IMG/VR virus record: IMGVR_UViG_3300031578_000002
Span: 1 to 60,289 of that record
Length of the DNA: 60,289 nucleotides
DNA from: a virus
Reading direction: 5' to 3' (one strand)
Within the stretch, counting starts at the first letter, position 1, and each line of letters begins with the position of its first letter. Below the pieces are notes generated by a model. That model saw nothing but the letters and a program-made list of their open reading frames with translations, had not been told where the DNA came from and searched no databases. Both the position numbers and the translations under genes were made by a program. This document shows, piece after piece, positions 1-10,257 of the stretch.

Positions 1-9
1 AAAAACTAC

Positions 10-130
10 ACATAACAACAAATATAAAACATTGCTGTCGTGATTTCTATTTACTTATACGTAATTATTTTAATTTTGTTACATTTATTTGCATTTATGT
101 TGCAATATTTTATATTTGCGACCGTTAGCA
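10..130. repeat. attC-like hairpin element 1
   Basis: ACATAAC (10-16), arm CAAATATAAAACATTGC (19-35), loop, complementary arm GCAATATTTTATATTTG (102-118), 5 nt, GTTAGCA (124-130). Confidence 0.75.
58..82 (-). promoter_or_regulatory. ECF-type promoter GTAAC-N16-CGTA inside the hairpin 1 loop
   Basis: Same motif and spacing as six other sites that lie upstream of genes. Confidence 0.55.
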
Positions 131-136
131 ATAATG

Positions 137-376
137 CTATTTTACCCAGTTATATCTTACAAAATATCTACGTCCAAAAAAGTCTGTATGTGTTTGCCAA
201 CCTCGTTTATATATTTGATACCATTTACGAGGTAATAACTGTATTTTAGTGTCAATTTCAATAATACCAGAAGCACTATTGCTAACACTAAATAAATCCA
301 ATACTTGCTGTTTTGCTTGTTTTTCGGTTATCAGCTCGTAATGTAGGTCATCAAATATTTTATCTATCTTTTTCAT
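137..376 (-). CDS. small cassette-encoded hypothetical protein (start MKKIDK)
   Basis: ATG lies in the loop of hairpin 2; the ORF reads through the arm and core (LDLFSVSNS) and stops just before the left core. Confidence 0.65.
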   Translation of the reverse strand: MKKIDKIFDDLHYELITEKQAKQQVLDLFSVSNSASGIIEIDTKIQLLPRKWYQIYKRGWQTHTDFFGRRYFVRYNWVK

Positions 377-407
377 AGTCGTACTGTATTTATTATTTAC
401 GTTAGCA
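280..407. repeat. attC-like hairpin element 2
   Basis: TGCTAAC (280-286), arms 291-304 and 381-394 (12/14 complementary), GTTAGCA (401-407). Confidence 0.65.
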
Positions 408-626
408 AACATAACCACGAAGGTCGTAGCATTGGCAACTATGTGTTTCTATATTAATTATATAGTTATCACTTATGTCGCAAATGTATCTATCATGTCT
501 ATATTTACTATTTTTATTACTTTTTAAATTATTGCAAGTGTTACAATTACGTTTGCTAACAACAGGTTTAACCAATAAAGGTTTCCTGCGTAGGCGGTCT
601 GTAATGCGTTTAATAAAATTTTTCAT
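402..626 (-). CDS. small Cys-rich cassette-encoded protein
   Basis: CxxC...C...CxC; starts in the loop of hairpin 3; the TAA stop is inside the GTTAG core at 402-404. Confidence 0.65.
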   Translation of the reverse strand: MKNFIKRITDRLRRKPLLVKPVVSKRNCNTCNNLKSNKNSKYRHDRYICDISDNYIINIETHSCQCYDLRGYVC

Positions 627-683
627 ATCTTGATAATTTAGTTGTTTTAATTCCTTTACTGGTCAAACCTGCGGACGTTAGCG
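554..683. repeat. attC-like hairpin element 3
   Basis: TGCTAAC (554-560), arms CAGGTTTAACCAATAAAGG (563-581) and CCTTTACTGGTCAAACCTG (653-671), 5 nt, GTTAGCG (677-683). Confidence 0.8.
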
Positions 684-897
684 GTAATGCTTAAAGACAG
701 CAACACCGATAGGTATTGATATTAATGAGATTATAAACGCTGTTGCCAAATAAGGTCGTCCAGTAAGTTTATATTCTATTCCAATGTAAGTAAGGCTCAA
801 TACAGCCATTGCGAAAATACAAATACAAAGCACTACCGCTAAACACACGGTATAAAATATGCCTTTCTTTGTCGTTAAATTTAATTTTCAGTTCCAT
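678..897 (-). pseudogene. frameshifted cassette gene for a 72-aa, 2-TM membrane protein
   Basis: Removing one A from 841-843 gives MELKIKFNDKERHILYRVLAVVLCICIFAMAVLSLTYIGIEYKLTGRPYLATAFIISLISIPIGVAVFKHYR*, ending at the TAA in core 678-680. Confidence 0.7.
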
Positions 898-967
898 ATT
901 TAAGTTATTTGTTTATTGATAATTGTTACTTCTAAAACGGCACATTTCATACCGTCAACCGTTAGCA
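837..967. repeat. attC-like hairpin element 4 (1-nt insertion in left core)
   Basis: CGCTAAAC (837-844), arms 847-863 and 939-955, 5 nt, GTTAGCA (961-967). Confidence 0.75.
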
Positions 968-1240
968 CCCATTTAAGGATGCACAGTAATCAGTTAAGAA
1001 CTTTATATCTTCATCTCGCATTTCCCAACAACCTTTTTCTGAATTTTGGAAACCACGTCTATATTCTACTACATCGCAAGTGTCATGATGTAGTCCTTGA
1101 TAATCTTTGTTGTATTTAGGGTGTTTTGTATCCCTTACAGCAGCGCACCCACAACGAATGTCTAAAATAAAACGGGTGCTAACAACAGGTATATTTAATG
1201 CCTGTGTTTCTGCGTTATTCAAGTTTTCTGCTTCTTTCAT
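962..1240 (-). CDS. small cassette-encoded hypothetical protein
   Basis: Starts in the loop of hairpin 5, reads through the arm (ALNIPVVST), TAA stop in core 962-964. Confidence 0.7.
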   Translation of the reverse strand: MKEAENLNNAETQALNIPVVSTRFILDIRCGCAAVRDTKHPKYNKDYQGLHHDTCDVVEYRRGFQNSEKGCWEMRDEDIKFLTDYCASLNGC

Positions 1241-1300
1241 AATTTCTGCTATTTTAATAAGTTTGTAATTCTAAATCAGGCACTAAACATAACAGCACCT
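1177..1300. repeat. degenerate/truncated attC-like element 5 (array end)
   Basis: TGCTAAC (1177-1183), arms 1190-1204 and 1277-1291, no right-hand GTTAG core. Confidence 0.55.
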
Positions 1301-1342
1301 AAAAAACAGGCGGGGTTGGTTGTTTTATCGGTTTTCGATTTT

Positions 1343-1669
1343 TTACACATAGTTTTTATCAAGCCAATATACTACTGGTGCCATATCTTCATCACCACCA
1401 TACACATCATTTACATATTCTGCTCTTGTATCAATCCAAGAGCCAATATCATACCACCAACCTTCGGGTAAAAACATTTCAGCTGCTTTATTTGCCTCTT
1501 CAGGGGTTTTAAAAATAAATGTTTCTTCACACATTAATACGGTTATACCTATAGGTTTAAAACCAGCAGCTTTAATGTCATTTAAAAGCAAACTATTTGG
1601 TGTGCCATAATTATCATGTACTTCCCATAACTTGCTTTCATGTTCATCATAAACGTCAAAATTGCACAT
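1343..1669 (-). CDS. hypothetical acidic protein
   Basis: 108-aa ORF with a host-type promoter at 1686-1716. Confidence 0.7.
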   Translation of the reverse strand: MCNFDVYDEHESKLWEVHDNYGTPNSLLLNDIKAAGFKPIGITVLMCEETFIFKTPEEANKAAEMFLPEGWWYDIGSWIDTRAEYVNDVYGGDEDMAPVVYWLDKNYV

Positions 1670-1700
1670 AATATTTTATTTTTTGTAAATATAATAATTA

Positions 1701-2852
1701 TTATTGAATTTCCAAATCTCCTTTATCGGAATTACTGGTGAAACAAGAATCTGTTTTTAACCAATTACTGATTTCTGTTGGTGATAAATATTTAATGTCA
1801 CCATTAATCGTAATAGGTATTTTTCCATTAATATGATCAGTACAGGTTATAACGAGATTACTATTTGAGTATTTATTGTAATATTTATCACAAGAAATTG
1901 CATATTTTAATTGATTGTAATCTAAAATACTCCTTCTAAACTTACCTTGATAGCCAGTATCTACATTAGTTTCCAGAGGATTTATTTTTATTATTGAATT
2001 ATCCAAATCTTCATTACTTAAAAATCCATTCCCGTGTCGTGTTTGATATGCACGAGTTATATAATATGTGTCGATGATATTATGTTGGTCTTTGAATATA
2101 ATATCATCAATGATTTTAAATGCATTTTTGCTTGTGGTATTACTTCGGGTTACATTTGGAAAGAATCCATGATCCATATCAAGCATAATTCCTTGACTAC
2201 CTTCAAAAATTAAATCACCGTTTCCGAAATATACATCATTAATACTATTAACTATCTCATGTTTTTGAATTAAATCATCACATGCTTCTTTAAATTTCAA
2301 CTCTTCCTCATCAATTATTCGATGATAATTTTTGTCATATAAATCAAAAGCTGCTTTATAATATTTTCTTATTAATCTAATCTTTTCATCACGAATTGTT
2401 GGATAAAGCAAATCCCTCATATGTAAATGATAATGATCCTCATTGCGTTGAATTGTCGTGCCGAAACCAACTCCAACAGTACCATTTATTTTAAAATTAG
2501 CATCATTCAAATTCATTAATTTATCAAAGGGTGTTGTTATCAACGCATTTGCATTATAATACACCATAGGTATTGGTCCTAATTTTCTTAAAATATTACC
2601 TTCTTTAAAAACACCCATTGGGTCAACAGTACAATACTCCGACCAATATGTTGGGACGCCCTTTAATGTGCCTGAACCAAAATTTGAAAATACGTGTCTT
2701 ATGTCATTATAAACCACTGTATGTCCAACTTGATGACCTCCAGAAAATCTAACAACTAATGGATTTTTTGCATCAGAACATTTATTATTTGCCACGGAAC
2801 CTTTGCCTTCATCTCCATATAATGCACCAAGAATTATAGAAAATTTATTCAT
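1701..2852 (-). CDS. divergent adenylosuccinate synthetase-like protein (PurA family, not PurZ)
   Basis: GDEGKG, GGHQVGHTV, FEGSQG..LD..G.FPNVT.SNT, TRAYQTRHGNG. Confidence 0.85.
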   Translation of the reverse strand: MNKFSIILGALYGDEGKGSVANNKCSDAKNPLVVRFSGGHQVGHTVVYNDIRHVFSNFGSGTLKGVPTYWSEYCTVDPMGVFKEGNILRKLGPIPMVYYNANALITTPFDKLMNLNDANFKINGTVGVGFGTTIQRNEDHYHLHMRDLLYPTIRDEKIRLIRKYYKAAFDLYDKNYHRIIDEEELKFKEACDDLIQKHEIVNSINDVYFGNGDLIFEGSQGIMLDMDHGFFPNVTRSNTTSKNAFKIIDDIIFKDQHNIIDTYYITRAYQTRHGNGFLSNEDLDNSIIKINPLETNVDTGYQGKFRRSILDYNQLKYAISCDKYYNKYSNSNLVITCTDHINGKIPITINGDIKYLSPTEISNWLKTDSCFTSNSDKGDLEIQ

Positions 2853-2873
2853 AAATATTAATTTTTATTATAG

Positions 2874-2899
2874 TACGATAATTACAATCATTATGTTAC
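2874..2899 (-). promoter_or_regulatory. ECF-type promoter GTAAC-N17-CGTA
   Basis: 21 nt upstream of the PurA-like start. Confidence 0.7.
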
Positions 2900-2925
2900 A
2901 AAAAAGCCATGAATTTCTTCATGGC
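2900..2925 (-). terminator. intrinsic terminator after the vWA gene
   Basis: GCCATGAA-tttc-TTCATGGC stem with a U-tract on the minus strand. Confidence 0.7.
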
Positions 2926-2951
2926 CTTTAACTTAAATATTTATTATTCAC

Positions 2952-3872
2952 TTAAAGCTTCATTACTCCTTCATCAGGAGTCATTGCAAGTGCACCAATA
3001 TTTGACTTAGCAAGTGCGGTTGTTACTACTCCAGCAATCTTAGTATCAAAACCACTAACTACTTTTGTAATATCAACTCCATGTTGTACTGCAATAATGG
3101 TAGCGATAGTAGCACAAATAGCATGGTAATCATCAAGAACAATTAATCTTTCACCTAACATATCCTTCCAATAGCCTAAAACGTCGGGGTCATTACAATA
3201 ACTACCTTCATTAATGTGTATGTGATATACGTTATAAAGTCGTTGTGCTTCCTCAAGAAGTTGTTTGTCAGTAACTTCTTCACCTTGGGTATAGCCAAAC
3301 ACTTTTCTCAAACTATTTTCGTTTACTATATCCCAACTTGCTTCATCGCCAATGGTAAATAAAAATCCCTTTTGATTGCGTTTTTCAAAGCAATCAATAC
3401 TTGTATGCCTACCAGCAACAAGCCAAGCCAGAAGATAAGACTCTTTATCTTGGCCGCCGCCACTTTGAAGAGCAACACCTGTTAGCCATTTATCGAGTTC
3501 TTCTGTACCGGATTCGAATTGACCAACCTGAATCGGTGCTTTCACATGTGTGTTATGATCATTAATTGCACCAAAAAGAACTTGTGGATGTTCAATACCA
3601 TTGTCAATAATGGTGTTCATTAATGTTGGAAGTTCATTCTTTACAATATCTTCTGGAATTCTACCCATGCTACCAGTATCATCAAGAAATACCATAACTG
3701 CAATTGATTCTGGGTGATCATCACTATCACGAGATTCACGGATAGTGATTTTATTGGGCATCATATCATCAGAAGCATCTTTTGAAAAGATATCATCCGA
3801 TGATTTGGTTGCATAACCCCTACTTGATGACAAGTGAGTATATGCATCGTCAGACCATTTACTGTATCCCAT
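2952..3872 (-). CDS. vWA (MIDAS) domain protein
   Basis: FLDDTGSM, GGGQDKESY, FTIGDE. Confidence 0.8.
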   Translation of the reverse strand: MGYSKWSDDAYTHLSSSRGYATKSSDDIFSKDASDDMMPNKITIRESRDSDDHPESIAVMVFLDDTGSMGRIPEDIVKNELPTLMNTIIDNGIEHPQVLFGAINDHNTHVKAPIQVGQFESGTEELDKWLTGVALQSGGGQDKESYLLAWLVAGRHTSIDCFEKRNQKGFLFTIGDEASWDIVNENSLRKVFGYTQGEEVTDKQLLEEAQRLYNVYHIHINEGSYCNDPDVLGYWKDMLGERLIVLDDYHAICATIATIIAVQHGVDITKVVSGFDTKIAGVVTTALAKSNIGALAMTPDEGVMKL

Positions 3873-9387: not shown

Positions 9388-10257
9388 ATGAAAAAGTTTA
9401 AAACTATGTTAAATAGGTCAATATCTACCCTAATCATTTTATTAGGATCAAATTTATTAATCTATTTAGGTACAAGTGCCTCAACAAATTCTAATGATGT
9501 TGAATTTAGATATAACGCACTTAAATATGAAAACGAATTATTAATGAACAAATATTATCAATATGAAAAGAACTTAAATTTAATTGAAAATAAAATGGAT
9601 TCAATTAATATTTTAAATAACTATTTTTATTCACAGATTCGATGCTCAAATCCTAATAATAATAAGATTGATACGTTTAAATTTGGCATACAAAATACAG
9701 ATTCAATATTTAATTCTTTAGATACAAAGATTTTATATACATCAAAAACAGCAATAATGCAATTAAATAAATTATCTGATTTTACTAACCAGCTTAAAAA
9801 AAATGCTAGTATTGTTAGTTTGTATCCAGATATTTCCCCAATAAGACCAAATGATTTTATACGAGTGTCATCAGGATATGGATGGCGTATACACCCAATA
9901 TATAAACGAAAAATGTTTCATAACGGCATTGATGTTGTGGCAAAACCAAATTCAAAAGTATTTACCACAATAAGCGGAGTTGTTAAAGTTGTTAAATATT
10001 CAAATTTTGGGTATGGGAATAGAGTAATAATTGATAATTCTAGCGGATATGAAACATTATATGCCCACTTAAATCCAAAAATTGTTGTAAGGGAAGGACA
10101 GATAGTTAAGAAAGGTCAATTAATTGGGATTATGGGTGATAGTGGTAATGCAACTGGACCACATTTACACTATGAAATTCATGTACATAATCAAGTAAAA
10201 AATCCAATTGAATATGTTTATGGTTATTTAACAAATGAATTAACAGCAAAAAAATAA
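9388..10257 (+). CDS. M23 family peptidase
   Basis: SSGYGWR.HP, HNGID, YAHL, TGPHLHYE; N-terminal TM and coiled coil. Confidence 0.9.
   Translation: MKKFKTMLNRSISTLIILLGSNLLIYLGTSASTNSNDVEFRYNALKYENELLMNKYYQYEKNLNLIENKMDSINILNNYFYSQIRCSNPNNNKIDTFKFGIQNTDSIFNSLDTKILYTSKTAIMQLNKLSDFTNQLKKNASIVSLYPDISPIRPNDFIRVSSGYGWRIHPIYKRKMFHNGIDVVAKPNSKVFTTISGVVKVVKYSNFGYGNRVIIDNSSGYETLYAHLNPKIVVREGQIVKKGQLIGIMGDSGNATGPHLHYEIHVHNQVKNPIEYVYGYLTNELTAKK

Follow-up and report, generated by a model that had tools for sequence, protein, structure and literature searches.

The first 1.3 kb of a large phage contig was found to consist of small genes set between structured elements, an arrangement that resembles the gene cassettes and attC sites of integrons. 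The stretch of DNA analysed, hereafter the window, comprises 60,289 nt and is the first part of a linear viral contig of 140,815 nt with 29% G+C (G000; IMG/VR record IMGVR_UViG_3300031578_000002). Completeness of the contig was estimated by CheckV as 46%. Baseplate, DNA polymerase and exonuclease proteins are encoded by the contig, which therefore belongs to a large phage. Five structured elements were located on the minus strand at positions 6-1311, where they bound four units of ~280 bp with one small open reading frame (ORF) each. The hexamer GTTAGC occurs on the plus strand at 124, 401, 677 and 961 (spacing 277, 276 and 284 nt) and its complement at 281, 555 and 1178, with a copy containing one extra base at 837-843. 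The 140.8-kb contig as a whole contains 13 copies of GTTAGC and 19 of its complement, 17.5 of each being expected; 4 of the 13 and 3 of the 19 lie within the first 1.2 kb. An earlier inspection of the letters alone, called here the sequence-only reading, had described an integron-like cassette array in a phage. We confirmed the array, its five elements and four units of ~280 bp, with the cores and the spacing as described, and the ~14-bp inverted repeats that had been said to close the units were all present (Table 1).

Read along the minus strand, each unit of the window consists of a structured element (~125 nt) and then a body (~150 nt), with the start codon inside the loop of the element and a reading frame that crosses the GTT core. 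The TAA of the next core serves as the stop codon, except in cassette A, which is terminated by TAG 12 nt earlier in the same frame. That the plus strand of 1-1300 might be a recombinase gene split by the elements was ruled out because the plus-strand frames were closed and the minus-strand ORFs were coherent. Translational bypassing between the core stop and the GTT-AGC codons was rejected as well: take-off and landing codons mismatch, and the frame across the core varies. A search of 1-3000 against Rfam returned nothing credible.

Comparison of the window with GenBank phages by blastn gave matches limited to the elements, with none in the bodies. Element 5 was 84% identical to Cellulophaga phages phi19:3 and phi13:2; for phi19:3 the 84% match of element 5 and the leader of ORF 962-1240 was to gp033. 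Element 1 was 82% identical to an element of the 462-kb phage LR756500. Rows of elements were present in both phi19:3 and LR756500. A covariance model, R1, was built from nine elements. In the 140.8-kb contig it matched six sites only, the five of the window and another close to the 3' end; in LR756500 it matched 16 clustered sites and one stray. In IMG/VR, from which loci were retrieved with two exact element words, R1 identified 144 elements in 28 loci. The arms of the elements had been taken to be unrelated in sequence, with only structure conserved. This had to be corrected: the arms are homologous, with conserved positions and with compensatory changes in 13 of 18 helix pairs in the nine sequences. 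Among 136 distinct sequences, 94.3% of helix cells were paired, compared with 59.6% in shuffles. Helix cells changed on both sides numbered 780, and one G·U was kept in 125 of 130 sequences. The AAC core was found in 140 and the GTT core in 141 of the 144 elements. Recognition by R1 was strand-specific, as at one place that scored 124 bits on the sense strand and 17 on the opposite strand. No conserved bulges (extrahelical bases) were found in the sites; fixed G·T wobbles were found instead, and in element 3 the minus strand shows G·T at both mismatches of the helix. The elements form one family, whose structure is under selection.

The length of the element, measured from AAC to GTT in phage loci L008-L037, fell into classes of ~40-50, 70-90 and 100-130 nt with a few near 190, which suggests helix-only, short-loop and full-loop forms. 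The loop of element 1 contains at window 58-82 a motif of sigma-ECF type, GTAAC-N16-CGTA, oriented along the cassette genes. The homologous element of LR756500 keeps it as GAAAC-N16-CGTA, and this type of element recurs in 12 IMG/VR loci.

The ends of each unit form a second stem. To measure it, the bases that follow the GTT core of an element were set against those that precede the next element's AAC core. Over 111 phage units, the two ends of the same unit paired at 10.2 of 13 variable positions; random partners paired at 6.8 and neighbouring units at 6.4. The closing stem comprises 14-15 bp and is cassette-specific in every unit. Positions 1-4 are invariant (GTTA/TAAC), and positions 5-10 vary and covary. 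Position 11 was a G·T wobble in 58 of 69 phage units, with an invariant 3' T, and this wobble was confined to one strand. Position 12 is T-A, positions 13-15 pair and pairing ends at position 16. When the sites of the window were circularised and folded with DNA parameters, each gave one hairpin with two stems around a spacer of 5 nt and 2 nt, more stable on the sense strand than on the antisense strand by 2.5-6.2 kcal/mol. For cassette B the energies of the single hairpin were -26.8 (sense) and -20.6 kcal/mol (antisense).

Table 1. Elements and cassettes of the array at the start of the window. Scores are those of covariance model R1.
Feature	Position (nt)	Strand	ORF	Helix arms	Closing stem	R1 (bits)	Remarks
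Element 1, folded site	6..136	minus		19-35/102-118		103	Loop with sigma-ECF-like promoter motif, no start codon; downstream unit cut by contig start
Cassette A	125..401	minus	137-376		124-138/272-286		Order on minus strand: site (element 2), GTTAGC, body, GCTAA
Element 2, degenerate folded site	276..413	minus				36 only	Loop holds start codon of ORF 137-376
Cassette B	402..677	minus	402-626		401-414/547-560		Stop codon is TAA in core
Element 3	550..689	minus		563-581/653-671 (19-bp helix)		108	Start codon in loop
Cassette C	678..961	minus	678-897 (frameshifted)		677-692/828-844
Element 4	833..973	minus		847-866/936-955		113
Cassette D, distal-most unit in window	962..1311	minus	962-1240		961-974/1170-1183
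Element 5	1173-1311	minus				110	5' AAC core decayed

Arrays of the same kind were present on bacterial chromosomes. A degenerate pattern scan that covered one genome per prokaryotic species gave at least 120 loci. Among the matches listed, nearly all were in Bacteroidota (Flavobacteriaceae, Bacteroidales, Prolixibacteraceae and others), and R1 detected 254 elements in 80 bacterial loci. The chromosome of Polaribacter sp. R77954 contained at least 99 elements over 131 kb at 1.90-2.03 Mb (L158), Lacinutrix neustonica 127 elements, in an array at 0.84-1.00 Mb, and Winogradskyella sediminis 114. In size the Polaribacter and Lacinutrix arrays (130-165 kb) rival the Vibrio superintegron. The grammar of the bacterial arrays is identical to that of the phage arrays; their closing stem comprises 14 bp and position 11 was G·T in 64 of 67 units. 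No common cassette bodies were found by blastn between the phage and bacterial loci of this study.

The two sets of arrays differ in the orientation of the genes. Of the phage units, 93 had the longer ORF on the folded strand and 14 had it on the other one. Of the bacterial units, by contrast, 55 had genes opposite to the folded strand and 11 had them on it. Despite the opposite gene orientation, the strand that carries the wobbles was identical in phages and bacteria. This comparison bears on the possibility that the hairpins act in mRNA, in processing, stabilising or translation control, with shuffling as a by-product. On this view the structures would surround the start codons and join the 5' end of every cistron to its 3' end by pairing. 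In its favour, the folded strand of the phages is the coding strand, and all wobbles are G·U on the transcript. Moreover, the start codon was in the loop in 48 of 111 phage units, and in 30 of 111 the stop codon was the core TAA. However, the bacterial arrays have the same structure and the same fixed wobbles antisense to their genes, and an action in mRNA explains neither the DNA breakpoints at the core nor the linked recombinase, both described below. We consider it highly improbable as the basis of the array. A fold kept on one DNA strand, whichever the direction of transcription, points to a DNA structure, presumably single-stranded, rather than to mRNA. An extra role of the fold in phage mRNA is possible.

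The sequence-only reading had proposed capture or shuffling of cassettes, against which an identical order in related phages, with indels elsewhere than at G|TT, would have counted. Related phages were instead found to differ in cassette order, with breaks at the G|TT core (AA|C on the other strand), which bears the proposal out. Four Cellulophaga phages have conserved left and right blocks with 7 to 14 further small genes between them, the right block consisting of a small gene and an integrase. In phi19:3 and phi13:2 the blocks are 96-99% identical and their order differs. The gp033 block spans exactly AAC to AAC, and in all four phages the right block starts exactly at AAC, behind four different last cassettes. 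Two further blocks common to pairs of viruses, of 95% and 99.6% identity, also end at AAC. The definition of a cassette as a body with its downstream element, cut at the GTT core, was rejected because the blocks of high identity have AAC at either end and the reading frame varies where it crosses the GTT core. Single cassettes of the window itself stood alone in contigs of other metagenomes. Logan contigs from a landfill metagenome cover only window positions 123-404 and 676-966, that is, one cassette each with foreign flanks, and a contig from a subsurface metagenome begins at window position 124. In these other contexts the window cassettes were ~95-97% identical. Low-support joints of run X3, with a shorter side of 20-24 nt, were left out.

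A candidate recombinase was linked to the arrays. Six of 26 viral records had a match to PF00589. Two of these six loci are 100% identical over 8.6 kb and were therefore counted once. By coordinates, all six have the recombinase gene downstream of the array and on its strand. It starts within ~350 nt of the last detected element in three distinct loci and, where the junction was read, tens of nucleotides past the AAC of the last unit; in the remaining two loci it is ~1.5 kb away and, across contig ends, ~7 kb away. The phage recombinase is a protein of 268 aa with the R, HxxR, H and Y motifs and scored best with Xer-type models. With the integron-integrase model TIGR02249 it scored 156 bits, below the cut-off of 265, and the match was split in two stretches. 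The split falls where the IntI-specific segment would lie, and this segment is missing in the phage protein. The Polaribacter protein scored 192 bits against the same cut-off and its match was likewise split in two. Bacterial recombinases were 34-45% identical to the phage protein and were encoded 0.7-2.1 kb from the array in three of four genomes with detected elements. The Polaribacter R77954 array begins beside such a gene (45% identity), and over Polaribacter, Lacinutrix and Winogradskyella the distance was 0.7-2.1 kb and the identity 35-45%. The recombinase gene of Lacinutrix is interrupted by stop codons.

The contig of the window gave no PF00589 match of its own because only 26 codons of the gene are present: the contig ends with the first 26 codons of the recombinase gene. 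The complete gene was found in another contig, L030, one end of which (10074-10200) is 100% identical to window positions 1-127, where element 1 lies. Seven more elements follow in L030 and then the full gene, so that the recombinase lies ~3 kb left of the window. The 127-nt overlap looks like an assembly-graph overlap. Positions 140697-140815 of the contig are in turn 100% identical to L030 7055-7173, so both contig ends match one contig. A second array, on the plus strand, occupies the 3' end of the contig outside the window (139958-140815). This array includes one full element (139958-140099) and a proper cassette, whose 15-bp closing stem shows the wobble at position 11. It also includes an 'empty' mini unit with no more than 11 nt inside a 9-bp closing stem. 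Beyond these come the conserved junction and the 26 codons with which the Xer-like recombinase gene starts. As for the tyrosine recombinase to which the sequence-only reading had assigned the array, a linked gene was thus found, in the form of an Xer-like one. Since its product fails the integron-integrase model, the system is integron-like and not an integron.

The conserved junction before the recombinase gene, TAAC followed by a TTATATAT-like motif, is a candidate insertion site. Different cassettes abut it in this contig and in L030, and also in the four Cellulophaga phages. Junctions like it are also found before the gene in L015 and L032 and before the conserved right block of the Cellulophaga phages. 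From the AAC before the recombinase gene onward this contig and L030 are identical, and upstream of it they differ, as would be expected from insertion at an attI-like site.

We conclude that the window probably carries a phage-borne array of mobile gene cassettes that belongs to an integron-like gene-capture system of Bacteroidota. On the minus strand a cassette consists of C, a linker of 4-5 nt, a helix of 18-20 bp, TT, GTTA with a cassette-specific extension of 11 nt, the gene body, the complementary extension and TAA, and the loop of the helix often carries the promoter or the start codon. In the mechanism that we infer, the two extensions would pair in single-stranded DNA or in an excised circle and give one long hairpin composed of the 15-bp stem, an unpaired spacer and the second stem, which would match the bottom strand of an integron attC site. 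The Xer-like tyrosine recombinase would attach to both stems and cleave AAC after its second A (AA|C), which would lead to excision, insertion and reordering of cassettes. Insertion would occur mainly at the conserved site just upstream of the recombinase gene.

Several observations weigh against this conclusion. Mobility was read from comparisons of assembled sequences, the runs consisting of contigs and not of raw reads, and the resolution of the breakpoints is limited to the 3-6 bases in common. In one block of 99.6% identity the match begins 16 nt upstream of AAC, and many matches of 85-90% span the element alone, from TAAC to GTTA. The same element, even with the same encoded leader, was joined to unrelated gene bodies; some exchange must therefore also take place at or near the GTT core, or the bodies are turned over in another way. 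Each end of the contig continues into one and the same recombinase node, behind which two recombinase copies, a large inversion or co-existing population variants could stand. Of the seven viral contigs with a completeness rating of 90% or more, five had arrays but no PF00589 match, as did the GenBank phage LR756500 (462 kb); such arrays may depend on a host enzyme or be relics. Finally, the integrase beside the arrays of the Cellulophaga phages belongs to a different family, of 418 aa.

The scarcity of recombinase genes would be accounted for if the repeats were regulatory motifs shuffled by general or microhomology recombination with no dedicated recombinase. Promoter and stem-loop motifs (PeSLs) are reported to be shuffled in this manner in T4-type phages (PMC2839356, PMC4122927), and most of the complete array-bearing phage genomes here lack a tyrosine recombinase. 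A promoter motif occurs in some elements, and elements of unrelated phages are 85-95% identical over ~120 nt. The breaks are nevertheless located at a core of 3-6 nt and not across the longer common stretches. Homologous exchange leaves unexplained why each cassette has a closing stem of its own with a fixed wobble, and the position of the recombinase gene is too regular. We regard PeSL-type shuffling as quite improbable for this array.

The array of the window could also be a relic that was built in a host or an ancestral phage and is immobile here, like the integrase-less attC clusters (CALINs). Element 2 is degenerate, element 5 has no 5' core, and the contig lacks a complete recombinase gene. 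In addition, the core at 837-843 contains an extra base that breaks ORF 678-897 of cassette C. This base, at 841, was missing from all contigs of runs X2 and X4 and from part of those of X1; the broken core and ORF are therefore a minority variant or an assembly error. The overlapping contig L030 has a recombinase gene with catalytic motifs, and it differs from this contig in the cassette at the recombinase-proximal site. Together with the ~95-97% identical copies of window cassettes in other contexts, this makes an immobile relic unlikely, and an array of mobile cassettes is preferred.

Next to integrons, especially sedentary chromosomal integrons with their long homogeneous attC sites, the phage arrays have one-gene cassettes and an imperfect one-strand hairpin site with AAC and GTT cores. 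In both, the start of the cassette is complementary to its own inverse core, breaks lie at G|TT (AA|C in the complement), the stop codon is often part of the core, and the order on the folded strand is array, conserved site and recombinase gene. The phage recombinase differs in being a 268-aa Xer-like protein without the IntI-specific segment. The stem that resembles the R box is 15 bp here and 7 bp in integrons, and the strand is marked by fixed G·T wobbles here and by extrahelical bases in integrons. Unlike integron genes, those of the phages are encoded by the folded strand, in many cases with a start inside the site, and their transcription runs in the direction of the recombinase gene.

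The rAID-1 arrays of Bacteroidales, in which an XerD-like recombinase stands beside rows of small genes with repetitive integron-like intergenic sequences (Ross et al. 2019, bioRxiv 10.1101/471110), are the closest published relative; rAID-1 is likened here by its description, the arrays tested being those of Flavobacteriaceae. The Flavobacteriaceae arrays are like the phage arrays in the element, the closing stem and the position-11 wobble, with a recombinase 45% identical to the phage one. In the bacterial arrays the recombinase gene lies on the 5' side of the other genes and has their direction, and the sites come after the genes, on the other strand. The phage arrays end with the recombinase gene, and their genes share a strand with the sites. 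The phage recombinase also lacks the N-terminal extension of ~100 aa of the bacterial one. Unlike rAID-1, the phage cargo contains no recognisable immunity genes. Searches of the cassette proteins against Pfam and PHROG gave no informative match, and one PHROG hits only the element-encoded leader.

Among phages, the nearest analogue is the PeSLs of T4-type phages, hyperplastic regions of small genes of unknown function with promoter and stem-loop motifs, whose modules are gained, lost and swapped (PMC2839356, PMC4122927). As far as these reports (Arbiol et al. 2010; Comeau et al. 2014) describe them, the PeSLs differ in having no dedicated recombinase, closing stem, AAC/GTT cores or host-chromosome counterpart. 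Qi et al. 2023 (PMC9892861) described attC-like sites in virulent marine phages, including a Polaribacter phage, some of which recombine with IntI1 in E. coli; canonical attC models were used and two to four sites were found per phage. The survey of 10,705 phage genomes with integron tools (PMC9892861) contains nothing like the present family, and neither the paper nor its supplement includes a Cellulophaga phage or any of the phages studied here. Our literature searches gave no description of phage arrays of such a type. The phage version, with genes on the folded strand that often start inside the site, looks undescribed.

Other genes were noted beside the arrays. A gene for a PurA-like (adenylosuccinate synthetase-like) protein lies at 1701-2852, just past the array of the window; a peptide-pattern search of IMG/VR with this protein found no related viral contigs and no close relative. 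The array of LR756500 (399500-412500; L003) has 13 elements on one strand and three on the other, which diverge from a 5-kb block encoding a glycosyltransferase, a GNAT acetyltransferase and a 478-aa endonuclease-like protein.

The common view of integrons is of a bacterial apparatus that needs the special domain of IntI. The arrays described here follow the cassette logic of integrons with a plain Xer-like enzyme and inside virus genomes, which bears on the origin of integrons from Xer recombinases. Four cultured phages of Cellulophaga baltica, phi19:3, phi13:2, phi18:3 and phi46:3, have arrays that differ in cassette content and order and make the system directly testable. In the fixed G·T wobbles there is a specific candidate, open to mutation, for the feature by which the enzyme chooses the DNA strand. 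In a broader view, for which we judge the case to be evenly balanced, Bacteroidota phages from 44 kb up to jumbo phages of 460 kb would run an active integron-like gene-capture platform, whose minimal Xer-like recombinase is without the domain considered essential for recombining folded sites. The site would be turned round and would serve also as promoter, start codon and leader, and the phages may trade cassettes with the chromosomal arrays of their hosts. Such a platform would let phages collect and reshuffle small accessory genes, likely with functions in host takeover or anti-defence.

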